64,000 nt of DNA from an uncultured bacterium (GTDB taxonomy: Bacteria; Patescibacteriota; Microgenomatia; Levybacterales; UBA12049), in contig CAWGXL010000002.1 of the NCBI GenBank assembly GCA_963826535.1, positions 96,654-160,653 of the forward strand. Reading direction: 5' to 3'. Within the stretch, counting starts at the first letter, position 1. Every line of letters begins with the position of its first letter. This document shows, one piece after another, positions 7,308 through 64,000 of this stretch. The notes beneath the pieces are model-generated. The model saw only the letters and a program-made list of their open reading frames with translations. It searched no databases and was not told where the DNA came from. A program made the translations under genes and the position numbers.

Positions 7308-7598
7308 GTGTACATTCATATTATGAACAATGCTTCACTTACTGCGACTGAATTTCGTAATCGTTTGTTTGAAATCTTGAATTACACAATTAAAGGCAGC
7401 GAATTTGTTATCGAAAAAGATGGCAGACCTGCTGCCAGACTGGTTCCCTATGTGCCTAAGTCTTCATCTATGAAAGTTAAAAACATATTGAAGAATTTTA
7501 AAATTGTCTTTTCCAAAGTTGGTCAGAAAAAAGGCTGGTCGGTTTTGGAGAGTCCAGGATGGAAAGAAAAAGAAAAAAAATACCTTAAAAGTTTCTGA
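7308..7598 (+). CDS. Phd/YefM-family antitoxin
   Basis: ...LTATEFRNRLFEILNYTIKGSEFVIEKDGRPAARLVPY. The stop overlaps the start of the downstream PIN gene (ATGA). The true start may be the internal Met at about 7323. Confidence 0.6.
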   Translation: MYIHIMNNASLTATEFRNRLFEILNYTIKGSEFVIEKDGRPAARLVPYVPKSSSMKVKNILKNFKIVFSKVGQKKGWSVLESPGWKEKEKKYLKSF

Positions 7599-8011
7599 TG
7601 AAAAGAATAGTAATCGATACGAATATCCTAATTGACTATTCGAAAGGATTTGCTACTTGGCCCGAAGATTTACTTATCGCAAAAAAAAGAACCACAGATC
7701 TTATTATTCCAACCATTGTTATATCAGAATATTTCGCCTCAAGTTTTCTGGAAGAACCCAAGTTGAGGAAAGCAGCCGATGACTTATTTAGCCTCTTTCA
7801 TAAGGTTGATTTTAATGAAGAAATTGCCAAAATTCTCGCAAAAATCTTGCGCAGAAAAACATTTCCCAAAAGCGCAAGCCTTGCAGATCTTATAATTGCC
7901 TCTACAGCGATTTATTTGGACGCAGAGCTTGCTACTAGAAATAAATCCGATTTTACAAAAATCCCGTCCCTCCGCATTTTTGAAGTAAAAGAGAAGAAGA
8001 GTAGAAAATGA
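7598..8011 (+). CDS. vapC: PIN-domain toxin (VapC-like)
   Basis: IVIDTNILID...ADLIIASTAIYLDAELATRNKSDF. Acidic residues sit in PIN positions. Confidence 0.7.
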   Translation: MKRIVIDTNILIDYSKGFATWPEDLLIAKKRTTDLIIPTIVISEYFASSFLEEPKLRKAADDLFSLFHKVDFNEEIAKILAKILRRKTFPKSASLADLIIASTAIYLDAELATRNKSDFTKIPSLRIFEVKEKKSRK

Positions 8012-37643: not shown

Positions 37644-37718
37644 TTTTATTTGGCTCCCCCGCGAGGACTCGAACCTCGAACCAATCGATTAACAGTCGAT
37701 TGCTCTACCATTGAGCTA
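37644..37718 (-). tRNA. tRNA-Asn (anticodon GTT), CCA encoded
   Basis: The reverse complement gives TCCCCTG-TA-GCTC-AATGGTA-GAGC-A-ATCGA-CTGTTAA-TCGAT-TGGTT-CGAGG-TTCGAGT-CCTCG-CGGGGGA-G-CCA. Confidence 0.8.
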
Positions 37719-37802
37719 CAGGGGAATGTCAAAAGTTCCTGCCGGGTTTGAAGCGGCGGAACGTATCCGTTATTTTATCATTAAAGAATGCATAAATCCA
37801 TA

Positions 37803-38711
37803 CTAAATCTTCCACCCAAGCTCTATCTTAATCTCCTTCACTGCTTTTTCATATTTGTCTTTCGTTAGCTGGTTATTTAATATGCAATACTTTTTACTAG
37901 TTAGTCCAAAGCAACCGATGCAATCAGAGCAGTTTGTTAGCCTTTCACTATAGTAACAATTTGAGCAACCTTGACTTGATACAAGAAACGCAGAGTCATA
38001 GCAGTCGGTTACCTCTATCGTTTCATAACATCGCTCGCATGCAGTTTTTATTACAGGGTTTCCATATGTGAAAAGGACATCCCAACAATTCTTTGTGTTA
38101 AAACCACTATTATACATATATCCGCAGTTTTCAGCAGTATAAGTATTAAAGCCCCAATAACAGTTCTTTGAATCATATATGTAATCTCCATATGGACTGT
38201 TTTCGCTATTAAGTTGAATGCTTGCAGGATGTGGAATCTGTTTTTTTAACTCAAACATTTGTTTTAGAATTTTTTCAGGTTTTTCCTTATTTAGTACTTC
38301 CACCTTTTTCAAATATTCATCTTTGGTATATTGCCGGTTAAATATACAATATTTTTTATGAGTTAGTGCAACACAACCAAAACAATCAGTGCAAGTGTTT
38401 AAAAATGATGAATAATGGCAATCAGTAGAGTTATTACAATTTATAAGATAAGTACAGCTATTACAATTATTGCAATCAATAGATTCATAACATTTTTCTG
38501 AGAATACCATCTGATAAGAATCTACGACCTTATTACCATTTGCCAATGTTGTATAGATAGAATCTGATAGTTCTAATACACAGAAGCAGTAAAAGCAATT
38601 CTTGATATTATCTACAAAATCTACGTATACACTATCAACAGCTGAGCGAATCATAGCAGACGGTACAGGAATCGATTTTTTCAGAAGTTCATATTTTTCC
38701 AGAAAATTCAT
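37803..38711 (-). CDS. Cys-rich protein, paralog B (internally duplicated CxxC-rich modules), unknown family
   Basis: MNFLEKYELLKKSIPVP.... Two modules each contain NC..C...LINCNNSTDCH.S..LN.C.DC.GC..L..KKYCI.N.Q.TK. C-terminus is LGWKI. Confidence 0.6.
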   Translation of the reverse strand: MNFLEKYELLKKSIPVPSAMIRSAVDSVYVDFVDNIKNCFYCFCVLELSDSIYTTLANGNKVVDSYQMVFSEKCYESIDCNNCNSCTYLINCNNSTDCHYSSFLNTCTDCFGCVALTHKKYCIFNRQYTKDEYLKKVEVLNKEKPEKILKQMFELKKQIPHPASIQLNSENSPYGDYIYDSKNCYWGFNTYTAENCGYMYNSGFNTKNCWDVLFTYGNPVIKTACERCYETIEVTDCYDSAFLVSSQGCSNCYYSERLTNCSDCIGCFGLTSKKYCILNNQLTKDKYEKAVKEIKIELGWKI

Positions 38712-38715
38712 AATC

Positions 38716-39624
38716 TTATACCTTCCACCCAAGCCCTTTTTTTATATCTATTAAAGCTTTTTCATATTGCACTTTTGTTAGCTGATTATTAAGTATACAA
38801 TATTTTTTATTCTTCAAACCCACACACCCGAAACAGTCAGAGCAGTTTAAGAGCTTTGTACCGTAGTGACAATTCATGCAACCCTCACTATATGTTAAAA
38901 AAGCGCAGTTATAACAAAAATCAGTATAAACATTCTCATAACATAGCTCTGCAAAACGATTAGTCTCCGGAGTCCCTCCAGTATGAAATATATCCCAACA
39001 ATGCTTCGTTAAACCACAGAAGTACATAAATCCGGAATTTTCAGAATAGTAACCTTGAAATGCCCAGTAACAGTTCTTTGAGTTATAGATATAATTACCA
39101 TATGGACAGTTCTCGCTATTGGATTGCTGACTTGCAGGATGAGGGATTTTAGGTTTAATTTCAAGCATTTGGTTAAGAATCTTTTGAGGATCTTGCTTTT
39201 TTAAATCCTCAACTTTTTTCAAATATTCATCTTTGGTATATTGCCGGTTAAATATACAATATTTTTTGTGATTTAACCCGACGCATCCAAAACAGTCAGA
39301 GCAAGAGTTTAATAAAGCGGAAAAATGGCAATCTGTAGAATTATTACAATCAATTAAATATGTGGAGCTATAACACTTAGTACTTTCAATACATTCGTAG
39401 CATTTTTCCGACTCAGTCACAAAATCACAATCTACAAGTTTATTCCCCCAACCATAATATGTATAAATACTATCAAAAAGCCTAGTTCCATCAAAGCAAT
39501 AATAGTCGTTCTTTCCTATATAGACAGCATCTACATATTCGCACTCAACTGTATTAGGACCGATTGTTATCGCTGGCACGGGAACAGATTTCTTCAGAAG
39601 CTCATATTTTTCAAGGAAAGTCAT
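38716..39624 (-). CDS. Cys-rich protein, paralog A (internally duplicated CxxC-rich modules), unknown family
   Basis: MTFLEKYELLKKSVPVP.... Same architecture as paralog B, with about 60% identity by eye. C-terminus is LGWKV. Confidence 0.6.
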   Translation of the reverse strand: MTFLEKYELLKKSVPVPAITIGPNTVECEYVDAVYIGKNDYYCFDGTRLFDSIYTYYGWGNKLVDCDFVTESEKCYECIESTKCYSSTYLIDCNNSTDCHFSALLNSCSDCFGCVGLNHKKYCIFNRQYTKDEYLKKVEDLKKQDPQKILNQMLEIKPKIPHPASQQSNSENCPYGNYIYNSKNCYWAFQGYYSENSGFMYFCGLTKHCWDIFHTGGTPETNRFAELCYENVYTDFCYNCAFLTYSEGCMNCHYGTKLLNCSDCFGCVGLKNKKYCILNNQLTKVQYEKALIDIKKGLGWKV

Positions 39625-39639
39625 TGTACCTAATTTTTA

Positions 39640-42000
39640 CTATAATCTTGCCCGTTGGGAGATTTCGGCTTCGATTACCTCGGCGTTGCGGCCGAATTTA
39701 AGTCTCGAGAGTTCTTTTATCAGGTCGGCGACTCTTACGTTGCTAAGTTCTTTTTCGCGGCTAATATCTTTAGTGGTATCAAGCGAGAAAGGCGGTACAG
39801 GCTCACCGTTTACCAGGGTTCTCATATAAGCATTATATTTGTCAACATTTATTAAATCTGTTTCATTAAACATCGGTTGGAATTCGCGCTGTAAATAGCT
39901 GGCATCATTGACGCCGACCCGGAATGAAGCAATTGTCCCCACGTTTCCGAAAATTGCGTTTTTAATCTCTTCCTCCATCTGGCCTATGAATTGATTTGCC
40001 ACGATAAGATTGAGGCGGTATTTACGGGCTTCGGAAAGGATTTGGGCAAAATCGGGAGTAGCGAAATTTTGGAATTCGTCAACGTAGAGGTAGAAGTCTC
40101 GTCGTTTGTCCATATCCATATCCTGGCGTGACATAGCGGCAACCAGTATCTTGGGAACTAAGACCAAGCCCAAAAAGCTGGCGTTTTCTTCGCCGATTTT
40201 TCCTTTAGATAAATTAATAAGAAGGATTTTTCTTTCATCCATAACTTTACGGAAATCGAATGAGCTTTTGGATTGGCCAATTATATTTCTTATCATTTTA
40301 TTTGTAACGAAACGGCCGAATTTAGAGACAATATAATCCATAACCTCGGATTTGTGAAAGTCGGATGTTGTCGCGATTTGATCAGTCCAGTAACGGCGGA
40401 TAATAGGATCCTGAACTTTGGGCAATAACTCCTGTACATAGGCTGGATCCGTAAGAATACGTACAACCTCAATAAAGGTGCTTCCCGGCTCGTACATGAC
40501 AGTTAACATAGCATTTCGAACAGCATGTTCAAAACGTGGTCCGATAATACCGGTTTTATTTGGATCGAAGAGCTTATACATTAACCCTATTATAGAGTTG
40601 GTAACAAAATGTTTTTGTTGTTCTGTCTGGGCATCAAGCATATTGAACCCCATCGGCCGCTCTAAATCTGATGGATCAAATAAAATAACTTCTTCGGCGC
40701 GGTTGGGCGGAATTTGGCGCAATACATCTTCTACTAAATCTCCATGTGGATCAACAACGGCTATTCCTTCGCCCGCGTGAATATCTTGCATGATCATACT
40801 TTTAAGGAATTCGCTTTTTCCGGTACCTGTTTTTCCGATGATATACGTATGCCTTCTTCTATCGTCTTGGCTAACATATACTCCACGATTGAGACCACGG
40901 AATGTGCTTTTGCCAAGGTAAAGACCGCTTGTCGGTAGATTGGATGGCGCCGGTGCACGTTTGGATGTCAGCCAGTGAATACCGGGCGTTGTTATACTTT
41001 TATTTGGGAAATGGAAGATGGTTGCGAGTTCCTCACTGGTATGTAATGATGACTGACCCCACAGCGGGAAGTATCTATAAATAAAATCATGCATAAAAAA
41101 ACCTTTCATGAGGTGTTTGTTTTTTCTGAAATAATTTTGACCGGCGTATTGACCGAAAGTATTGATAATATTATTTAAGTGTGATTGTGCTGCTTGTTTT
41201 GTAGTAGAACATACAACAATCCTTATAACAGTATCAAACCCAACTTTGTTGATAGAACCTTCAATGCCCTCAAGCTCTTTCGCATCGGTTTTATATTTAG
41301 CAGTTTCCGGGCTGGCTTCATTTTTTTTAGTTTTACTAATATATCCCCTCCCTGATTTTTTCCAGTGATCACCTGCAGGCCTGACCAATATTTGAATTGT
41401 CGCCCCTTCTCCTTCACCCATTTTTGCAAGGACAGAGGTAATCGATGACAACGGGTCAACCGGCATATCTTTGAAGACTCTTATAGGTATATAGGAACTA
41501 TTTTTCTGATGTAATGAAGCAAAAGCTACTTTTCCATTTTCAGTAAAGATTTGGTATTCAGTTCCTACTACGTTGCCCGCTTTCTGTTTTGCAGTTGGAT
41601 CATTGACCGGCACGACTTCAGCATCCGGATAGGAGCCATTAATTTGCTTTTCTATGAAATCCCGATGTTTATTCGGAACCCAGACATAGAAACGAATTTC
41701 ACCCGGAAGTCCTACGACTTCAAAAGACAGGTGAGGTTGTGTTTTAAAGAATTCGAGCCATCCGATTTCCCTAAGCGATGCAAGTCCCGAAAACATTTGC
41801 TCGGCGGCATCTATTTTGATCTCATTTTCCCGTGGAACTGTTACCTGCAATAGGGTCGAATTTAGTGACTCTTGTTCGCGGTTTCTATTCCGAAACCAGA
41901 TAAGCAATGTATATCCAAATAACCACAAAAACCCTATCGTAACTGAAATAACAATTAAAGTAATAATAACGGTTATAATGAGAGAATTTATATTATCCAT
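39640..42000 (-). CDS. Membrane-anchored P-loop ATPase of the type IV secretion coupling-protein superfamily (TraG/TraD/VirD4-like, with a TraM-recognition-type C-terminal region)
   Basis: N-terminal hydrophobic hairpin. Walker A YIIGKTGTGKSEF. Walker B LYVDEFQNF. C-terminal ...ANQFIGQMEEEIKNAIFGNVGTIASFRVGVNDASYLQREF resembles TraG-D_C. Confidence 0.65.
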   Translation of the reverse strand: MDNINSLIITVIITLIVISVTIGFLWLFGYTLLIWFRNRNREQESLNSTLLQVTVPRENEIKIDAAEQMFSGLASLREIGWLEFFKTQPHLSFEVVGLPGEIRFYVWVPNKHRDFIEKQINGSYPDAEVVPVNDPTAKQKAGNVVGTEYQIFTENGKVAFASLHQKNSSYIPIRVFKDMPVDPLSSITSVLAKMGEGEGATIQILVRPAGDHWKKSGRGYISKTKKNEASPETAKYKTDAKELEGIEGSINKVGFDTVIRIVVCSTTKQAAQSHLNNIINTFGQYAGQNYFRKNKHLMKGFFMHDFIYRYFPLWGQSSLHTSEELATIFHFPNKSITTPGIHWLTSKRAPAPSNLPTSGLYLGKSTFRGLNRGVYVSQDDRRRHTYIIGKTGTGKSEFLKSMIMQDIHAGEGIAVVDPHGDLVEDVLRQIPPNRAEEVILFDPSDLERPMGFNMLDAQTEQQKHFVTNSIIGLMYKLFDPNKTGIIGPRFEHAVRNAMLTVMYEPGSTFIEVVRILTDPAYVQELLPKVQDPIIRRYWTDQIATTSDFHKSEVMDYIVSKFGRFVTNKMIRNIIGQSKSSFDFRKVMDERKILLINLSKGKIGEENASFLGLVLVPKILVAAMSRQDMDMDKRRDFYLYVDEFQNFATPDFAQILSEARKYRLNLIVANQFIGQMEEEIKNAIFGNVGTIASFRVGVNDASYLQREFQPMFNETDLINVDKYNAYMRTLVNGEPVPPFSLDTTKDISREKELSNVRVADLIKELSRLKFGRNAEVIEAEISQRARL

Positions 42001-42006
42001 TTTTCT

Positions 42007-42534
42007 TTAAATTGAGGCTTGTTTATTTTGTTTTACATCTTTGACTGCATCCGGGTCGTATTTACACCATTGGTACATTATCATAGCCGCAAGCCAATGG
42101 GTTGAGTCTAAAAATTCAGTATTTTTTAACTTTTGCAGCGCTTGTGGATAATTCATTGGGAGGTGGATCGTACCGGTTGGAGTCTTGATAATTGGCGTTG
42201 AATCTACGGCAGGAGTAACTGCCGTAACCTTTTGAATTTCTTTTTCTAATTTTAACTCGCGGCCATCAGGACCATGTTCGACTATATTTTTTAATTCTTG
42301 CGGAATCATAACTTCGGGGGATAACGAAGTAGTTATTTCAGGCGTTACAGTTTCCGCGCTATGAGTGGATTCGGATACCGGCACAGCAATTGTTGGCTCC
42401 TGTTCTTTATTCCCGGTGATTACCGCCGGTTCAGGCATATCTCCGCTTTGTTGCCCAGCTGTTGCAGCCGGTTGACCCGTTATATTTGTTTGAGGTGGAA
42501 CTGTTTGTTTTTGTAATTGTTTTGGATCCTGCAT
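42007..42534 (-). CDS. Hypothetical protein with a disordered Pro/Thr/Gln-rich N-terminal half
   Basis: 175-aa ORF immediately upstream of, and co-oriented with, the ATPase. Confidence 0.45.
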   Translation of the reverse strand: MQDPKQLQKQTVPPQTNITGQPAATAGQQSGDMPEPAVITGNKEQEPTIAVPVSESTHSAETVTPEITTSLSPEVMIPQELKNIVEHGPDGRELKLEKEIQKVTAVTPAVDSTPIIKTPTGTIHLPMNYPQALQKLKNTEFLDSTHWLAAMIMYQWCKYDPDAVKDVKQNKQASI

Positions 42535-43850: not shown

Positions 43851-44000
43851 CTACTTTCCGGGCTTCCAACCGCAGAGTGGGCAGGCTGTTAAATCGCCTT
43901 TTTGAATATTTAGTGTATCTTCATCATCCGCCACCCATCCACATTCTTTGCAAATGATTTTGAAACAAACCTCACATTTATTAGTTTTATTAGAGCTCAT
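43851..44000 (-). CDS. Small zinc-ribbon protein
   Basis: CEVC...CKEC...CPLC motifs. Start placed at the internal Met to avoid overlap with the upstream gene. Confidence 0.35.
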   Translation of the reverse strand: MSSNKTNKCEVCFKIICKECGWVADDEDTLNIQKGDLTACPLCGWKPGK

Positions 44001-44008
44001 ATTATAGC

Positions 44009-44863
44009 TTAACAAGCATACGGAGCACTGCACCCATTTACAGGACATTTAATCCTGCCATTACTTATAGTTGCGTCGATATCAGCTACACCACAAACCG
44101 GGCAATTTTTGCAGTGTAAAGTCTTCTCCCCAAATGAAATTTTTTCTGAATCAACAACACCTAATCTTGGAGTTACTGAATTTACTACAACAGTTTTACC
44201 TGAAGCTCCTCCGCCACCAGCACATCCTGGCTGTTCCGCAATAGCATTCAATATACTTCCAAAAGACTTCACATCAATCTGATTTGGCTTATACCACGTA
44301 TCGGGTTTTAATATAACTCTTTGTTTTTTTGCCGCTTCTTCGGTATAGTACAACTGAGACATACGAAGAATTGTCGCAGCAATAGCTTTTTGTAAATCAT
44401 GCTTGGTTAGTCCCTCTTGCAGACAATAAACCTCAAAATCTGCGATCATTTGTTGCGTTTTCTCATTGAATTGATATAGCCTTTCGCCTTGCAATATATC
44501 CTTATATACATCCTCCCATCCTGTTTTTTCCTGTGTGACTGAGTTTTTAAAAGCATGAGTTGATCTAACTTTCTCTAAGACTCCCACCACATCACTCACG
44601 CTTTGTATCTCTTCACTCTCTCCCGGTTTTATAGCAGCAACTGCCTCTACATATTCTTCAATCGATGCCATGACCGGAAGTCTTTTTCCTGTAAGCCTGT
44701 AAATAACTTCACGACTTTCCTGATGTGTAAAGTTTGTTTTCACTGTATAGTTAGTAACTGAATCAGCTTTCTTCTGCATTATAAAAAAGTATGAATCGGG
44801 ATATGTTATTTGTTCACCACTATCTGTTGTTAATCCGGAATCTCCTTTTGGACTTGTCATCAC
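44009..44863 (-). CDS. Hypothetical protein with a C-terminal Cys-rich (zinc-ribbon-like) tail
   Basis: 284 aa, ending ...HCKNCPVCGVADIDATISNGRIKCPVNGCSAPYAC. Confidence 0.5.
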   Translation of the reverse strand: MMTSPKGDSGLTTDSGEQITYPDSYFFIMQKKADSVTNYTVKTNFTHQESREVIYRLTGKRLPVMASIEEYVEAVAAIKPGESEEIQSVSDVVGVLEKVRSTHAFKNSVTQEKTGWEDVYKDILQGERLYQFNEKTQQMIADFEVYCLQEGLTKHDLQKAIAATILRMSQLYYTEEAAKKQRVILKPDTWYKPNQIDVKSFGSILNAIAEQPGCAGGGGASGKTVVVNSVTPRLGVVDSEKISFGEKTLHCKNCPVCGVADIDATISNGRIKCPVNGCSAPYAC

Positions 44864-47398: not shown

Positions 47399-47845
47399 CT
47401 AAATTTTTGTTTTCAATTCCTTACGAAACTTGTTTATAAAATCTCCGGGTTTTAACACTTCAATCGGCTTTAGGTACTCAATAACACCCTTTTTGAAAAA
47501 TCCTTTATCAAAAGAAATAACGAACTGAATACGTGTAGCCCGTTTTGCTGCGGCAATGATTGGCTCATCTTTGAAATTACTAAACGCGTCGTGCGCTTTT
47601 TTAATCTCTTCTTCGGTGGCATCATCGACAATTGTAAGAATGTTTTTACTGAGTATCGCTTCAAATCTGAGCGTTTCTTGCTCATTCCCATCTTTTATAT
47701 TGTTATTTTGCACTTCAAATACGACTTTTTTCGAAATATAGCATTTCAGTTTCCCCCGTATACAGTAGTCTATAATGAACGCAGAGGCTCCCTTTTTGGA
47801 TCTACAGAATGACAGCAGTACCGATGAGTCAAGAAATATATGCAT
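47399..47845 (-). CDS. PIN-domain toxin (VapC-like)
   Basis: MHIFLDSSVLLSF... N-terminal PIN signature with acidic residues. Its start overlaps the stop of the upstream antitoxin gene. Confidence 0.6.
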   Translation of the reverse strand: MHIFLDSSVLLSFCRSKKGASAFIIDYCIRGKLKCYISKKVVFEVQNNNIKDGNEQETLRFEAILSKNILTIVDDATEEEIKKAHDAFSNFKDEPIIAAAKRATRIQFVISFDKGFFKKGVIEYLKPIEVLKPGDFINKFRKELKTKI

Positions 47846-48126
47846 TATGGGAGATCAGACAAACGTTTTTCAACCTCGGAAGCAAGCGGCTCCGGCAGCT
47901 TATCTTCTTTCACCCATTCATCAATTTGATTTTTGCTAAACTTCCTGTAGTCAGCATAATGTGCAACTTTTCTTGATTGAATAATGAGCTTATCTCCCTC
48001 CACTTTCGCTTTTGCCACGTCTCCTTCGTCAAGACCCAATTGTTTACGAAATTGTTTTGGAATAGTGATGACCCCTTTCGGCAAAATCTTGATCCATGTT
48101 TCCCGTGATTTAATTTGTGTTTGCAT
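47845..48126 (-). CDS. AbrB/MazE/SpoVT-family antitoxin
   Basis: KGVITIPKQFRKQLGLDEGDVAKAKVEGDKLII is a swapped-hairpin AbrB-type DNA-binding domain. Length is 93 aa. Confidence 0.6.
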   Translation of the reverse strand: MQTQIKSRETWIKILPKGVITIPKQFRKQLGLDEGDVAKAKVEGDKLIIQSRKVAHYADYRKFSKNQIDEWVKEDKLPEPLASEVEKRLSDLP

Positions 48127-59807: not shown

Positions 59808-60376
59808 TTAAATTTTCAAAGTTTTTTTTACAACGTTAATTCCTTCGACTAATCTATCAACATCCTCCTTAGTATTATATAAATACAGAGATGCTCTCGC
59901 TGTAGCCGGTACACCTAGAGCTTGCATAGTAATTTGTGCGCAGTGATGGCCGGAGCGGATTGCAATATTTTGTCCATCGAGAATTTGAGCGATATCATGC
60001 GCATGGGCGTTTGTTATATTAAAAGAAAAAATACCGAGCCGGTCTTTATATGTTTTTGGACCGTATAATTTTAAGAAAGGTAAATTTTTTAATTTTTCAA
60101 GTGCATATTTAGTTAGTTCATTTTCATAACTAGCGATTTTTTCCCAACCAATTTTTTTTAAATATGAAATTGAGGCTGACAAACCTACAACCCCTTCAAG
60201 ATTACCGGTTCCTGCTTCAAATTTATCAGGAAGATCAGCCCAAGTTGCTTTATTTTTGGTTACAGTTTTTATCATATGACTACCGACATGAAGCGGATCC
60301 ATTGTTTCGAGCAAATCTTCCTTTGCCCATAGCACACCGACCCCCGTTGGCCCAAGCATTTTGTGAGCGGAGAAGG
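59808..60376 (-). CDS. sufS: Cysteine desulfurase SufS, C-terminal half only. The 5' part is truncated at the low-GC/high-GC junction.
   Basis: ...AFSAHKMLGPTGVGVLWAKEDLLETMDPL...RSGHHCAQ.... The PLP-Lys motif (FS-A/G-HK) is the first recognisable element. Everything N-terminal in the ORF track is translated from unrelated high-GC DNA. Confidence 0.75.
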
Positions 60377-61328
60377 CAAGACGTTCTTCCTGGGGTATGC
60401 CGCGGTGCAGGCGGGAGGCGACCCCTCGCTGCTGTTCGATGACCTCGTCCGCAACGCGCCGGGATTCTCGAAGCCCTGGCTGCAAGCCGCCTTCGTGCTG
60501 CTCGTGGTCGGGTATGGAACGAAGATGGGATTGGCCCCCATGCATACGTGGAAGCCCGACGCGTATGGCGAGGCGCCGGGGATCGTGGGCGCCCTGATGG
60601 CCGGCGCCCTGACGAGCTGCGCCTTCCTCGCTCTTTCCCGGGTCTTTCACGTTCTGACCGCCGCGGGAGAGGGAGCATTTGCTGGGCGCATCCTGGTCGT
60701 GCTCGGGCTCTTCTCCATGGCCGTCGCCGGCGTGTTCACGGTCCGTCAGCGAGACCTGAAGCGCATGCTGGCGTATTCGAGCGTCGAGCACATGGGAATT
60801 CTGGCGTTCGGTCTCGGCCTCGGCGGCAGCGGTATCTTCGGCGCCTTCCTGCACATGCTGAACAACGGGATCATCAAGGGCGTGATGTTCCTCTCGGCCG
60901 GGAACATCCACCGGGCCTACGACAGCAAGTACGTCGAGGACGTGTCGGGGGCGCTCCGGCGCGTCCCGTGGTCCGGCGCCTTGTTCCTGGCCGGGTTCTT
61001 CGCGGTGACCGGCTCTCCGCCCTTTGGCCCGTTCGTCAGCGAGCTGTCCATTCTCAATGCCGCGATGGAACAGCATCGCTGGGGCGTCGCGGCGGCCATG
61101 CTGGGTCTGCTTCTCGTCGTGTTCATGGGGATGGGGGTGACGGTGCTCGGAGTCGTCCAGGGCGAGGCGGGGCCGAGCTCGAGCCAGTCCCGATTCCGGG
61201 ACGGCGTTCTCAACACATTGCCGGCGCTGGTGCTCCTGGCCATGTCGTTCGGCATGGGAGTGGCCATGCCCGACGCGATCCAGTCGATGGTCCGGGAGGC
61301 CGCGGACTACGTCGGAGGCCGGCGATGA
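60363..61328 (+). CDS. NuoL/NuoM/NuoN- or HyfB/HycC-like proton-translocating membrane subunit. C-terminal ~320 aa only, 5'-truncated at the junction.
   Basis: MGLAPMHTWKPDAYGEAPGIVGALMAG and KRMLAYSSVEHMGI are complex-I antiporter-subunit signatures. High GC. Its stop overlaps the next gene's ATG (ATGA). Confidence 0.7.
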   Translation: MSGEGKTFFLGYAAVQAGGDPSLLFDDLVRNAPGFSKPWLQAAFVLLVVGYGTKMGLAPMHTWKPDAYGEAPGIVGALMAGALTSCAFLALSRVFHVLTAAGEGAFAGRILVVLGLFSMAVAGVFTVRQRDLKRMLAYSSVEHMGILAFGLGLGGSGIFGAFLHMLNNGIIKGVMFLSAGNIHRAYDSKYVEDVSGALRRVPWSGALFLAGFFAVTGSPPFGPFVSELSILNAAMEQHRWGVAAAMLGLLLVVFMGMGVTVLGVVQGEAGPSSSQSRFRDGVLNTLPALVLLAMSFGMGVAMPDAIQSMVREAADYVGGRR

Positions 61329-62860
61329 GCCTCCGGGCGGGGCGCGCGGTCGAGAATGGCGAAGCCGTCCCGGTGGGCGAAGTCCCCGAGCTGTCGAACG
61401 AGGAGTTCCGGCAGGTCGTGATCGAGGCCTGCCGTCGGGAGCGGCGAGTGTCGGCGCTGTTCGGCGACTCGAGAGACGGCGAGGGTGGCCGCGATCTCGT
61501 GGAGCTCTACGCGGTACTGGCCGAGGAGGACACGGCGTCGCTGCTCCTCGCCCGGACCCGGATCGAGGCCGACGTCTTCGAGTCGCTGACGCCGGATTGC
61601 CCGCAGGTGCACCTGTTCGAGCGCGAGATTGCCGAGCAGTACGGGTGCGTGCCGCGGGGGCACCCGTGGCTGAAGCCCGTTCGGTTCCATGCCCCGTACC
61701 GTCGCCCGGCCTCGGGCGTCGAGACGGGGCCCAGGCCGCCCGTGGTCGGAGTGATGGACTACTACCGGGTCGAGGGCGACGAGGTGCACGAGGTGGCGGT
61801 CGGGCCCGTGCACGCGGGGATCATCGAGCCGGGCCACTTTCGCTTCCAGTGCCACGGGGAGACGGTGTTCCACCTCGAGATCTCGCTCGGCTACCAGCAC
61901 CGGGGCATCGAGCGGCACCTCGTCGGCGGTCCGACGCCCAGGACCGTGCACTACATGGAGACGCTCGCCGGCGACACGACGCTCGGTCACGCGACCGCGT
62001 ACTGCCACGCCGTGGAAGCCCTGGCCCGGATCCACGCCCCGGCGAAGGCGCAGTTCATTCGCGGCATCGCGCTCGAGCTGGAGCGACTGGCGAACCACGT
62101 CGGCGATCTCGGTGCTCTCGCGGGCGATGTCGGCTATCTGCCCACGGCCTCGTTCTGCGGGCGCATCCGCGGCGACTACCTGAACATGAGCGCGCTCTTG
62201 TGCGGGAATCGATTCGGCCGGGACCTGACTCGCGTGGGCGGCGTGCGCTTCGACATCGACGAAGCGGTGCGAGAGAGCCTTGTCACGCGGCTGGACGCCG
62301 CGGAGCGGGACACCGCGAGTGCCGTGAACCTGCTCTGGGAGTCGTCGTCGGTGATGTCGCGGTTCGAGGATGCCGGGAGCATCTCGGAGGAGGTCGCGCG
62401 GGAGATCGGTCTCGTGGGCCCGGCCGCCCGCGCCAGTGGCCTGGGACGCGACGTGCGAACCGACTTTCCCAAGGGCGTCTACCGCTACAGCCACGTGCCG
62501 ATGTGCACGTGGAGCACCGGTGATGTCTTTGCGCGGGCGTACGTCCGCTGGCTCGAGATCCAGAACTCGATCCGCTTTATCCGCGAGGAGCTTCAGGAGC
62601 TGCCGGAAGGCGCGCTCCAGGTGAGTGTGCCCATCTTGATGCCCGAGAGCATCGTGGTGTCGCTCGTCGAGGGCTGGCGTGGGGAGATCTGCCACGTGGC
62701 GATCACCGACGAGGCGGGGAAGTTCCGCCGCTACAAGGTCGTCGACCCCTCGTTCCACAACTGGTCCGGTCTCGCGCTCGCCCTCCGCGGACAGGAGATC
62801 TCGGACTTTCCGTTGTGCAACAAGAGCTTCAACCTGTCCTACGCGGGCTTCGACCTGTGA
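61325..62860 (+). CDS. NuoC-NuoD fusion / HycE-like large subunit of a group-4 hydrogenase-related complex, apparently lacking the [NiFe] cysteine ligands
   Basis: NuoC-like FEREIAEQYGCVPRGHPWLKPV, then GPVHAGIIEPGHFRF. At the L1 position it reads ETLAGDTTLGHATAYCHAVE (no CxxC). At the C-terminus it reads VDPSFHNWSG (no DPCxxC). Start taken at the ATG at 61325 rather than the track's 60548. Confidence 0.7.
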   Translation: MSLRAGRAVENGEAVPVGEVPELSNEEFRQVVIEACRRERRVSALFGDSRDGEGGRDLVELYAVLAEEDTASLLLARTRIEADVFESLTPDCPQVHLFEREIAEQYGCVPRGHPWLKPVRFHAPYRRPASGVETGPRPPVVGVMDYYRVEGDEVHEVAVGPVHAGIIEPGHFRFQCHGETVFHLEISLGYQHRGIERHLVGGPTPRTVHYMETLAGDTTLGHATAYCHAVEALARIHAPAKAQFIRGIALELERLANHVGDLGALAGDVGYLPTASFCGRIRGDYLNMSALLCGNRFGRDLTRVGGVRFDIDEAVRESLVTRLDAAERDTASAVNLLWESSSVMSRFEDAGSISEEVAREIGLVGPAARASGLGRDVRTDFPKGVYRYSHVPMCTWSTGDVFARAYVRWLEIQNSIRFIREELQELPEGALQVSVPILMPESIVVSLVEGWRGEICHVAITDEAGKFRRYKVVDPSFHNWSGLALALRGQEISDFPLCNKSFNLSYAGFDL

Positions 62861-62901
62861 TTCGTCTCCTTCGAGCTCGAGTGCTTCAGGGTCATCGGAC
62901 C

Positions 62902-63729
62902 ATGCCGTTTCCGGACGGGCCTCCGCCGGAGCTGCCCGCGCGGTTTCGCGGCCGGCCCGAGATCGACGCCGGCCTGTGCCGGTCCGGCTGCCGCGCGTGC
63001 GCGGAGGCCTGTCCGACCCAGGCGATCACGGGCGGGGAGTCGGCTCAGATCGACCTCGGCCGCTGCCTCTTCTGCACCGACTGCGTGGAGGCCTGTCCCG
63101 AGGGCGCGATCTCCTTCACCAATGACTATCGTCTCGCGGTGCGCCGGCGCGAGGACCTCGTGGTCTGCGGCAATCAGGATGCGCTCCCGCTCGCCGCGGA
63201 GCTGGGTGCGGAGCTGCATCGCCTGCTCGGGCGGTCGCTCAAGCTGCGCCAGGTATCGGCGGGCGGCTGCAATGGGTGCGAGCTCGATACCAATGTCCTC
63301 AACACGGTGGGCTGGGACCTCGGGCGGTTCGGGGTGCAATTCGTGGCGTCTCCTCGACACGCGGACGGCCTGCTCATCACCGGCGCGGTCTCCCAGAACA
63401 TGAAGCTCGCGCTCCAGAAGACCTACGATGCGATCCCCGCGCCGAAGATCGTCATCGCCGTGGGGGCATGCGCCGTCGGCGGCGGCCCGTTCGCCGGCCA
63501 CGCGGAGGTGAACGACGGGGCCACCGATCTGCTGCCGATCGACCTGCTGATACCGGGCTGTCCGCCGCACCCCCTCACGATCCTCGACGGCATCCTCCGG
63601 TTGCTGGGTCGAGTGGACGGCGGGAAGCCCCGGTCGAGTCCGGCGATCGAGCAACCCGGGCAGTCAGCGTGGCGAGCCAGGCCGGGTGGTGGCACGCCGC
63701 CCGGCCGTGTGGGCGAACAGCGGCCGTGA
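62902..63729 (+). CDS. Fusion of a 2x[4Fe-4S] ferredoxin (HycF/NuoI-like) with a NuoB/HycG-like small subunit
   Basis: CRSGCRACAEACP and CLFCTDCVEACP cluster motifs. Then GGCNGCE...VASPRHADGLLITGAVS...VGACAVGGGPF...IPGCPPHP (N2-cluster-type ligands). An alternative upstream start at 62815 is possible. Confidence 0.7.
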   Translation: MPFPDGPPPELPARFRGRPEIDAGLCRSGCRACAEACPTQAITGGESAQIDLGRCLFCTDCVEACPEGAISFTNDYRLAVRRREDLVVCGNQDALPLAAELGAELHRLLGRSLKLRQVSAGGCNGCELDTNVLNTVGWDLGRFGVQFVASPRHADGLLITGAVSQNMKLALQKTYDAIPAPKIVIAVGACAVGGGPFAGHAEVNDGATDLLPIDLLIPGCPPHPLTILDGILRLLGRVDGGKPRSSPAIEQPGQSAWRARPGGGTPPGRVGEQRP

Positions 63730-64000
63730 TCTGGCCCGTCCGTCGCCGGTCCTCACGCCACGCGCCAAGCGTGACCCGCGGGCCGGCCCTAGGCCTGCGG
63801 CCTGGCGATTCCTTGCAGCCCTAAATTTTAGGGCTGCGGGATACGCGGACGGCGCCGCGCAACCTATTCAGAATTGGAGGTCATCCGCCTGTCCAGCGTA
63901 AAGTATGGCGCGAGTGAGGAAAACGCCCGCACCATGAACCTGCTCCAGACCTGCATACCTGCCGACGCGCGCAGCGTCTGCCGTCTTACGGAGCCGGATA

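Follow-up and report, generated by a model that had tools for sequence, protein, structure and literature searches.

The window, the whole 64-kb stretch of DNA that we analysed, carries on its minus strand a string of tightly packed genes that includes two adjacent, cysteine-rich proteins, here called CysA and CysB. CysA (38716..39624, minus strand) is encoded by an open reading frame of 302 codons whose product matches the database protein P0001 at 100%, and CysB (37803..38711, minus strand), its paralogue, is identical to the database protein P0056. The ORF list gave CysB a TTG start and the span 37803..38732. Translation almost certainly begins at the ATG at 38711 instead, because this codon lies 4 nt past the CysA stop and is preceded by a GGAAGG ribosome-binding site, and CysB is therefore also 302 residues long. 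The two proteins are 61% identical over 303 aligned columns (E 1e-129), in agreement with the first-pass annotation, which had described tandem paralogues of about 300 residues with roughly 60% identity. Their alignment also contains the common termini that it had pointed out, FLEKYELLKKS.PVP at the N terminus and LGWK[VI] at the C terminus. The lack of a signal peptide or a transmembrane segment is borne out by a charged N terminus and a Kyte-Doolittle 19-residue maximum of 1.0-1.2 in both proteins. Cysteine makes up 8.3% of the residues, and the proteins are merely mildly acidic (pI 5.7-6.2), which rules out DNA mimicry. The nearest relative of CysB is P0058 with 69% identity, and CysA is more distant (61%), so that the duplication is old. 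No further copy of the family was found in the window by tblastn.

Directly upstream of the pair, as had been noticed from the letters, lies the gene for a VirD4/TraD-like coupling-type ATPase (T4CP) of 786 residues (39640..42000, minus strand), which was assigned by the Pfam domain models T4SS-DNA_transf (38.7 bits; cut-off 20.1), TrwB_AAD_bind (34.2 bits; cut-off 20.5) and TraG-D_C, likewise above its cut-off. The NCBIfam matches to VirD4-like and TraD models were all sub-threshold; since the equivalog cut-offs were missed, the window ATPase is a distant T4CP member. Its Walker motifs, GKxGxGKS and DEF, are invariant among the T4CPs aligned with it, and its N terminus appears hydrophobic when the translation is judged by eye. 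The stop codon of the ATPase lies 15 nt before the ATG of CysA. This gap, together with the 4-nt gap between CysA and CysB, implies that the three genes are likely co-transcribed. A low-complexity ORF of 175 aa (42007..42534, minus strand) stops 7 nt before the ATPase gene. It matches no family and is not a conserved neighbour of T4CP orthologues, with one weak match among 80 T4CP-centred loci. At the other end, directly downstream of CysB, the string closes with a gene for tRNA-Asn(GTT) (37651..37725, minus strand; ARAGORN, Rfam tRNA model at 71.9 bits). This tRNA was the sole Rfam match when the operon region was searched for regulatory RNAs, and promoter and terminator scans of the same region gave no excess over the shuffle expectation.

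CysA and CysB each consist of two related halves. The N- and C-terminal halves are 38% identical in CysA (E 3e-28) and 32% in CysB (E 5e-29), over 128-145 residues, and contain 12 and 13 cysteines in CysA and 13 and 12 in CysB. The duplication proposed in the first-pass annotation is thus real; its module size of about 110 aa has to be revised to nearer 130 aa. From the internal repeat alignment, the family alignment and the Cys register, module 1 of CysA was placed at 39175..39585 (minus strand; approximately residues 14-150). It begins with an IPxPA lead-in, continues with a solenoid with Cys or Ser at every third residue, and closes with C108-x2-C111-x2-C114-x8-C123-I-x-N-x-Q followed by a helix. 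Module 2 (38737..39147, minus strand; approximately residues 160-296), placed by the repeat alignment and the Cys register, is built in the same way, with CxxC-x8 units in a 12-residue period (C237/240, 249/252, 261/264, 267 and 276). The corresponding modules of CysB, at 38262..38672 and 37824..38234 (both minus strand), were located with the CysA-CysB and internal repeat alignments. Both proteins align end to end with a 36-sequence short-form alignment and carry all of its invariant residues. They also share the two hallmarks of the family, namely the N-terminal helix F-L-x-K-[YF]-x-x-L-x-x-S-x-P and two modules that each close with C-x2-C-x-G-C-x8-C-[IL]-x-N-x-Q and a helix. CysA and CysB are therefore very probably long-separated paralogues within a vast, unnamed family of the ultra-small CPR/Patescibacteria, in which an N-terminal helix precedes two predicted solenoid modules of about 130 aa.

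We examined the cysteines in a family alignment of 591 sequences. All Cys-rich columns fall on a strict 3-residue register, and this inward register has a mean column entropy of 1.56, versus 2.77 and 2.22 in the other two registers. Most of these columns exchange Cys with Ser and with Leu, Val or Ile: ladder columns are 25-78% Cys with Ser, Leu and Val as alternatives, and column 264, for example, is 59% Cys and 31% Leu. The total number of cysteines is even in just 49% of the sequences. Cysteines co-occur positively when they stand 3, 9 or 12 residues apart (phi at most 0.42), and the mean phi for those 6 residues apart is -0.11. The best-kept set, CxxCxxC-x8-C, is all-Cys in 75% of short-form modules and in 27% of the second modules of the long form, where 'SLCC' is the commonest pattern. 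These observations, together with structure models that resemble β-solenoids, speak against the initial suggestion of a series of Zn knuckles or a new type of metal-binding repeat.

An AlphaFold2 model of the short form (CysA) reached a mean pLDDT of 75, with the C-terminal module as its most confident part (87-97) and module 1 at 46-55. The long-form model had a pTM of 0.81 and a pLDDT of 60-69 in the solenoid core. The fold matches of both models were β-solenoids alone; Foldseek of the long-form model against the PDB returned nothing at E<3. Each module is thus predicted to form a tight β-solenoid whose inward-facing, every-third residues are Cys, Ser or small aliphatic residues, that is, a 'Cys ladder'. 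The closest structural analogue is the antifreeze protein of Tenebrio molitor (TmAFP, PDB 1EZG), which likewise has 12-residue coils and small inward residues (Cys, Ser or Ala) at every third position. TmAFP, however, is secreted and has invariant i/i+6 cross-coil disulfides and a TxT ice-binding face, whereas our family has negative i+6 co-occurrence, variable cysteines, no signal peptide, no TxT ladder and no match to the Pfam antifreeze model; TmAFP is an analogue and not a family member. The curli subunit CsgA (PDB 8C50), another β-solenoid stack, differs by its Gln/Asn/Gly-rich repeats of about 20 residues, its Sec signal, its export through CsgG/E/F and its lack of Cys, and it has no sequence similarity to the family (6% identity). 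The Pfam Hexapep and Pentapeptide repeat models gave no match. Searches of Pfam, NCBIfam, PHROGs, PADLOC and the PDB (by sequence and profile) were all negative for CysA and CysB, and nothing in Pfam or NCBIfam, curated zinc-finger models included, scored better than E 0.3, so the earlier statement that the pair belongs to no characterised family stands.

The family is extensive. With CysA as a query, the short form had 1014 matches at E<=1e-3. A profile retrieved 3460 clusters at 50% identity at this threshold, 2288 at 1e-10 and 1138 at 1e-30; the family size is therefore best read as a lower bound of at least 3,460 clusters. The long form comprises more than 7286 clusters at 90% identity, and 582 stretches were confirmed in GTDB species representatives. 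The family is restricted to CPR/Patescibacteria, and nearly all of the 79 family-centred loci that we kept are labelled as CPR lineages. Its carriers include the cultivable Saccharibacteria Nanosynbacter lyticus and Southlakia epibionticum. Most members are 520-620-aa long forms, in which a double treble-clef zinc finger (zf_Tbcl and zf_Tbcl_2) is fused at each end, and the window proteins represent the short form, which consists of the core alone and is typical of Microgenomates-like lineages. Family genes usually stand in head-to-tail arrays of 2-10 diverged paralogues: the 79 loci contain 251 of them, with a maximum of 10 per 20 kb, and at least nine copies follow each other in one locus (L038). 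Identity within arrays is 28-53%, and the paralogues are ancient and kept as orthologues across genomes. A single contig of 894,453 bp was the longest contig for 28 of the 120 top clusters. A genome holds 10-30 diverged paralogues, and the family is estimated to take up 1-4% of the coding capacity. Solo copies also occur in unrelated contexts, for example at locus L166. The ORFs between array copies are miscellaneous; an apparent second gene alternating with family members at a period of about 1.7 kb turned out to be the 560-aa long form itself. The arrays are comparable in size and divergence to those of VirB2-like pilins in Patescibacteria, which are CPR-specific, consist of 2-11 highly diverged paralogues with a mean identity of 25% and are tied to T4SS-family genes (PMC12102498). 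Those pilins, however, are small, membrane or Sec-dependent proteins encoded near virB4, and our family consists of soluble, solenoid-type proteins of 300-600 aa encoded near a T4CP. We came across no account of the family in two T4SS papers, one Southlakia Tn-seq study and one study of CPR gene content. The 'cysteine-rich proteins' of Peribacteria are a different group, as they have 580-3860 aa and are mostly secreted and pappalysin-like (PMC4736985, Table S4), and a Roizmanbacteria 'secreted cysteine-rich protein', which is a passing mention in the literature, was likewise rejected as the same family. An origin from phages or mobile elements was also discarded, since 2.9 million viral contigs yielded one marginal partial match.

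Across the family, a recurring gene order emerged, in which a TrmB-like regulator is encoded divergently from one or more family genes that are followed by a T4CP on the same strand (TrmB(-) | Cys+ xN | T4CP+). In 16 of 29 cases the T4CP directly adjoined the family genes on the same strand, and in 19 of 25 cases the TrmB-like regulator directly adjoined them in divergent orientation. Near the family there is one T4CP per 43 kb. A survey of 2918 genomes counted 5713 T4CPs, about two per genome (PMC12102498), and CPR genomes measure roughly 1 Mb (PMC12857230); adjacency to a T4CP is enriched about tenfold over the genome-wide density and is seen in three or more CPR classes. No T4CP lies within 10 kb in 58 of the 79 loci. 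The first-pass annotation had regarded homologs that are widespread and unlinked to the ATPase as telling against its view: the homologs are indeed widespread, and they are unlinked in part, in that most copies have no ATPase neighbour and adjacency is still strongly enriched. In short-form lineages, the zinc finger is a separate gene of 91-93 aa, and the order T4CP, zinc finger and one to three Cys genes with gaps of 2-8 nt was found in five of eight independent loci. Each end of the long form has this stand-alone protein as a homologue (E about 1e-15), which establishes a gene-fusion link between zinc finger and solenoid core. Both the partner and the long-form ends match the 'probable treble clef' models zf_Tbcl (PF13451) and zf_Tbcl_2 (PF23477) at about the gathering score (27.0 bits with a cut-off of 27, and 23.5 with a cut-off of 24), and the finger has a strongly basic consensus, CPxCRxQRRLxFRNERxLYxRKC. 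RecA, RecX, UvrB and LexA genes near some short-form operons reflect local synteny in a narrow lineage and not a link to DNA repair.

The window departs from this canonical context of a non-clade-II T4CP with a zf_Tbcl protein and/or a divergent TrmB-like regulator. CysA and CysB lack the zinc-finger domain, and neither a zinc-finger gene nor a TrmB-like gene lies anywhere in the 64 kb. The window ATPase belongs to a separate branch, 'clade II', apart from the family-linked T4CPs in 200 of 200 neighbour-joining bootstraps. We collected 80 loci centred on T4CPs of this clade (857 kb in all) and found neither a family member nor a zinc-finger gene at any of the 59 whose downstream sequence extends for 1.2 kb or more. 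The adjacency in the window is therefore local and not a conserved operon: the proposal of one operon with the ATPase holds for the tight packing of the genes and fails for conserved linkage. In the five closest relatives, a tRNA-Ile gene directly follows the T4CP. We nevertheless rejected the idea that the pair had been cleanly inserted at a tRNA gene, because the window has tRNA-Asn, after CysB, and the flanks cannot be aligned.

With low confidence, we favour a model in which a VirD4-like coupling ATPase has the solenoid proteins as clients or partners that can stand in for one another. Docking on the membrane-anchored ATPase would fall to the conserved parts, namely the N-terminal helix, the module caps and the fused or separate zinc finger, and binding specificity would differ between paralogues through the diverged outward faces of their solenoids. 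A single motor might then deliver a varied set of cargoes to or across the membrane of cells that live attached to their hosts. Contact with the ATPase, export and a role in host interaction are inferred, the first two from gene order. Substrates of VirD4 in other bacteria, such as the X-Tfe of Xanthomonas with their XVIPCD and the Beps of Bartonella with their BID domain, are similarly diverged paralogues with conserved recognition parts and no signal peptide that are genetically associated with a VirD4-like ATPase. The family differs in having no XVIPCD or BID by Pfam and no recurrent T4SS channel genes, so that the resemblance is in logic alone. Several observations count against the client model: the absence of family neighbours from the window's own T4CP clade, the many arrays that have no T4CP within 10 kb, and the lack of VirB4 or VirB6 channel genes among the recurrent neighbours. 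Zinc fingers and unconserved cysteines are more typical of intracellular than of exported, disulfide-locked proteins, and the confidence of the solenoid-core models is moderate. Finally, the T4CP homologue was reported to be non-essential for epibiotic growth of S. epibionticum, where other T4SS genes were essential (PMC12102498), which also speaks against it.

An unlikely alternative is that the proteins stay in the cytoplasm as accessory subunits that act on nucleic acid, with the Arg-rich treble-clef zinc fingers binding DNA or RNA and the solenoids serving as scaffold or specificity factor for an FtsK/VirD4-type motor. This idea is in keeping with the part that T4CPs play in conjugation, where they act as DNA-dependent motors, with the usual intracellular location of zinc fingers, and with the basic finger consensus, the lack of a signal peptide and the tight operons. 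However, 10-30 diverged paralogues per genome would be unusual for a DNA-handling factor, and the proteins themselves are not DNA mimics. RecA, RecX, UvrB and LexA were found at none of the 79 family-centred loci, and CPR genomes mostly lack relaxases (PMC12102498). About equally improbable is a non-functional link in the window, in which two copies of a multiplied cytoplasmic solenoid family with a structural, polymer-forming or scaffold role were moved behind a clade-II T4CP by a local rearrangement. The clade-II survey, the tRNA gene that follows the T4CP of the closest relatives, the missing zinc-finger and TrmB genes and the solo copies in unrelated contexts are all consistent with such an event, and dozens of copies per genome make chance adjacency not negligible. 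The short gaps that imply co-transcription argue against it, as does the enrichment beside other T4CPs in at least three classes; if the family came to lie beside a paralogous T4CP a second time, independently, this can equally be read as convergence.

It is very unlikely that the family consists of metal-binding proteins, with multiple Zn knuckles or Fe-S sites, that function in storage, redox or sensing. The high Cys content, the CxxC pairs at every 12 residues in module 2 and the positive co-occurrence at 3, 9 and 12 residues would suit this role, and so would C-x2-C-x2-C-x8-C, which occurs in both modules of CysA and CysB with a spacing reminiscent of [4Fe-4S] ligands and whose fourth Cys is His in some relatives (CCCH in 6-13%). 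Yet no Cys/His set of four is conserved across homologues, the terminal set being incomplete in 25-73% of modules, and the ladder cysteines exchange with Ser and aliphatic residues. The motif lacks the CP of the ferredoxin pattern CxxCxxCxxxCP and is not family-wide. There was no Pfam Fer4 or zinc-finger match, the fold matches are solenoids, and the weak coupling between cysteines is explicable by core packing. We consider least probable a role in anti-phage defence or conflict, in which the arrays would supply a diversified set of sensors inside the cell and the membrane ATPase would be their effector or partner. In its favour, the arrayed paralogues have diverged and combine conserved ends with variable surfaces, and the window ATPase weakly resembles defence ATPases of the HerA and Mad8 types (PADLOC mad8, E 9e-15). 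CRISPR systems are described as rare in CPR bacteria (PMC6509639). On the other hand, the Cys proteins have no PADLOC match, the near absence of the family from viral contigs offers no hint of genes exchanged with phages in an arms race, and ancient paralogues kept as orthologues are unlike fast-turnover defence islands.

A large part of bacterial diversity belongs to the CPR/Patescibacteria, and an unnamed family takes up a noticeable part of their coding capacity despite genomes of only about 1 Mb. The client model, if extended, leads to a speculative proposal: an orphan VirD4-like ATPase clade, a double treble-clef zinc finger, two to more than 25 Cys-ladder solenoids and a TrmB-like regulator may form an unrecognised CPR-wide system, in which one membrane motor serves many variable clients, either exported for interaction with the host or kept as an intracellular recognition repertoire. 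A 2025 survey found 148 of the 5713 CPR T4CPs near virB4 and left open the role of most patescibacterial VirD4-like ATPases, as they are not encoded with a T4SS; its authors state that exaptation for another function 'cannot be ruled out' (PMC12102498). Such a system, if true, would explain why the genes of most of the 5,713 patescibacterial T4CPs lie away from a T4SS. The conserved order of TrmB-like regulator, solenoid array with fused or separate zinc finger and T4CP offers a testable candidate partner set for these orphan ATPases. The analysis also defines a new Cys-laddered β-solenoid family with no solved relative, of which the window pair is an ordinary member in a non-canonical context.

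CysA (38716..39624, minus strand) and CysB form a tandem paralogous pair of minus-strand ORFs, each encoding 302 residues, with 61% identity between the two proteins (E 1e-129). CysB is listed by the ORF caller from a TTG at 38732, but its true start is the ATG at 38711, which lies 4 nt past the CysA stop, is preceded by GGAAGG and gives a product identical to database protein P0056. Alignment of the N- with the C-terminal half of each protein (32-38% identity over 128-145 residues; E about 1e-28) confirms the internal duplication, and each half carries 12-13 Cys. Neither protein contains a hydrophobic segment (maximum KD19 1.0-1.2). The ATG of CysA follows after 15 nt the stop of a 786-residue VirD4/TraD-like coupling-type ATPase (T4CP; 39640..42000), which matches Pfam T4SS-DNA_transf, TrwB_AAD_bind and TraG-D_C above cut-offs. 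The first-pass annotation had thus correctly described a tandem pair with duplicated Cys-rich modules and no TM segment, directly downstream of a coupling-protein-like ATPase. A low-complexity 175-residue ORF (42007..42534, minus strand) ends 7 nt upstream of the ATPase gene; it has no family match in Pfam or NCBIfam and is not conserved beside T4CP orthologues (one weak match in 80 loci). Further upstream, ahead of coaBC, a 65-residue ORF (43851..44048, minus strand) has eight Cys in CxxC pairs; it gave weak FYVE-like and zinc-ribbon matches only, below cut-offs, and is unrelated to CysA and CysB.

Sequence and profile searches of Pfam, NCBIfam, PHROGs, PADLOC and PDB returned no match for CysA or CysB, in line with the earlier view that they belong to no characterised family. 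Homologues of CysA number 1014 proteins at E<=1e-3, all unnamed or 'hypothetical', and an exhaustive profile search yielded 3460 clusters at 50% identity, 1138 of these at E<=1e-30, with 582 confirmed family stretches in GTDB species representatives. Nearly all of the 79 family-centred loci retained bear the names of CPR lineages (Peregrini-/Peribacteria, Gracilibacteria, Saccharibacteria, Paceibacterota/Nomurabacteria, Abawacabacteria and Microgenomates), and the family is essentially absent from viral contigs. Among the best 120 clusters, one 894,453-bp contig is the longest contig for 28, a 494,050-bp contig for 6 and the window's own 196,521-bp contig for 4, and from these lengths one genome of about 0.9 Mb would hold dozens of paralogues. 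CysA and CysB are each closer to a protein from another assembly (76% and 69% identity, respectively) than to each other, indicating that their duplication is old and that both copies were retained. We found no published description of these proteins in the literature; their family is very large, specific to CPR and undescribed, and it combines a distinctive predicted fold with a gene neighbourhood that is conserved. Typical CPR-type family genes also occur in MAGs titled 'uncultured Gammaproteobacteria', 'Woesearchaeota archaeon' and 'Bdellovibrionales' (L001/L002, L048 and L075, the last with a TrmB-like neighbour too), probably due to mis-binning or, less probably, because the family truly occurs in DPANN.

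The regular Cys pairs had been taken as Zn knuckles or a novel metal-binding repeat. In an alignment of 591 sequences, all Cys-rich columns fall on a strict 3-residue register (72, 75, ... 114; 228, 240, 246 ... 267, 276), and in most of them Cys is exchanged for Ser and for Leu/Val/Ile; Cys reaches 91% or more only at C108, C111, C114, C267 and C276. Column entropy is 1.56 in the inward register versus 2.77 and 2.22 in the other two. The AlphaFold2 models of CysA (mean pLDDT 75; 87-97 in the C-terminal module) and of a long-form member (pTM 0.81) both contain runs of very short strands, with a DSSP strand spacing of 9-12 residues that leaves the modelled coil length uncertain. Cys residues co-occur with a weak positive association when 3, 9 or 12 residues apart and a negative one when 6 apart, which fits a 12-residue coil and does not fit i/i+6 disulfides as in TmAFP. 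Of the short-form modules, 75% have the full terminal C-x2-C-x2-C-x8-C set; in the long form, 48% of first and 27% of second modules do, where 'SLCC' is the commonest pattern. The interchange of ladder Cys with Ser/Leu/Val/Ile, the incompleteness of the terminal set in many modules and an even Cys count in only 49% of sequences all argue against Zn knuckles, and we interpret the cysteines chiefly as residues of the core ladder in a predicted tight solenoid. In some members, CysA and CysB included, each module cap may hold a single metal site, but such a site does not define the family.

Most family genes in the fetched loci (191 of 251) encode a long form of 520-620 residues, in which the two-module core is extended by about 105 residues at the N-terminus and about 160 at the C-terminus. 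Both extensions hold a double treble-clef zinc finger (sub-threshold zf_Tbcl_2 matches) and share homology with one another as well as with a separately encoded protein of 91-93 residues (Zf; E about 1e-15), whose Pfam scores for zf_Tbcl and zf_Tbcl_2 lie close to the cut-offs. The build of the long form, Zf, two solenoid modules and Zf, therefore identifies CysA and CysB as the bare core of a modular protein. In Microgenomates-like lineages, the Zf gene adjoins short-form genes, and zinc finger and solenoid core are thereby connected by a fusion/fission link.

Across the 79 family-centred loci, the genes are arrayed head to tail, with as many as 10 copies in 20 kb (at least 9 in L038) and 28-53% identity within arrays. 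Recurrent neighbours come from just two other gene families, a VirD4-like ATPase (29 genes in 21 loci) and a 252-residue TrmB-like regulator (25 genes in 21 loci), usually in the order TrmB(-), Cys+ ... Cys+, T4CP+; the T4CP is the immediate same-strand neighbour in 16/29 cases and TrmB the immediate divergent neighbour in 19/25. These loci carry one T4CP per 43 kb, as against about two per genome (5713 in 2918 genomes; PMC12102498) of roughly 1 Mb (PMC12857230), a roughly tenfold enrichment. In short-form lineages, five of eight independent look-ups revealed an operon of T4CP, Zf and one to three Cys genes with 2-8-nt gaps; the other three showed Zf followed by Cys near a TrmB gene, a solo copy and an array on a short contig. 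Gene order thus connects three components: solenoid core, treble-clef zinc finger and one particular group of VirD4-like ATPases. In two assemblies, a small pair of genes, an 87-residue ORF and a toxin-antitoxin-like TumE-domain protein of 135-137 residues, also lies within short-form arrays (L165 7361..8000; L167 1837..2482). In one narrow lineage, the short-form operons have RecA immediately upstream, RecX immediately downstream and UvrB/LexA nearby (L168 3055..4128, L167 3391..3852, L165 10672..13457, L082 9474..11579); this is probably local synteny, since none of these genes was seen in the 79 family-centred loci.

The window departs from this pattern, having neither a Zf nor a TrmB gene. 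In a neighbour-joining tree, its ATPase lies deep inside a clade (clade II) that is split from all array-associated T4CPs of Peribacteria, Paceibacteria and Microgenomates in 200/200 bootstraps on the ATPase domain alone. We sampled 80 metagenomic loci centred on its closest relatives (38-75% identity; 857 kb in total, with at least 1.2 kb of downstream sequence in 59). Neither hmmsearch nor tblastn detected a family member or Zf gene in these 80 loci, while the positive control recovered 234 matches. The usual gene order there is T4CP, tRNA and a convergent XerC/D-like recombinase; a cobalamin-adenosyltransferase gene lies upstream in 16 loci as in the window, indicating orthologous positions. 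In the five closest relatives (L083, L085, L087, L088 and L127), the T4CP is followed directly by tRNA-Ile(TAT) in either orientation; in the window, CysA and CysB stand between the T4CP and tRNA-Asn(GTT) (37651..37725). The site behind the clade-II T4CP looks rearrangement-prone, and a clean insertion of the Cys pair could not be reconstructed from the flanks. The proposed single operon with the ATPase therefore holds in part: the tight T4CP-CysA-CysB string is very probably co-transcribed, but with a clade-II ATPase the adjacency is atypical for the family, and the string is a lineage-specific arrangement rather than a conserved operon. Tandem same-strand VirD4-like ATPase genes were seen in six other loci (L139, L143, L145, L150, L152 and L153); of these, L139, L143 and L152 were placed in the tree, where they fall outside clade II, yet they have no Cys-family neighbours.

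The identity of CysA and CysB as family members is well supported; their role is not. Only 148 of 5713 patescibacterial T4CPs lie near virB4, and exaptation to another function 'cannot be ruled out' (PMC12102498); the family's gene neighbourhood bears on this open question of orphan coupling ATPases. We tentatively favour a model in which the solenoid proteins would serve the coupling ATPase as exchangeable clients or partners: conserved parts would dock on the ATPase, and diversified outward faces would provide many specificities for one motor. Somewhat less probable is that the proteins are non-exported partners that handle nucleic acid. We give similar weight to the window pair having no functional tie to its ATPase, a reading that the clade-II placement favours and the tight string disfavours. 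The metal-binding role originally proposed is improbable in view of the exchangeable ladder cysteines, and a sensor repertoire of defence type appears slightly more doubtful still.

Elsewhere in the window, GC jumps abruptly from 0.31-0.40 to 0.63-0.68 in 60164..64000, with the switch point within about 60.1-60.4 kb. Genes in the high-GC part specify NuoC/NuoD-like and NuoB-plus-ferredoxin-like subunits of complex-I / group-4 hydrogenase type, foreign to a CPR genome, and the likely cause of the switch is that the assembly is chimeric or the window concatenated. By eye, two small pairs of overlapping genes (7308..8011, plus strand; 47399..48126, minus strand) resemble VapBC / PIN-AbrB toxin-antitoxin systems.
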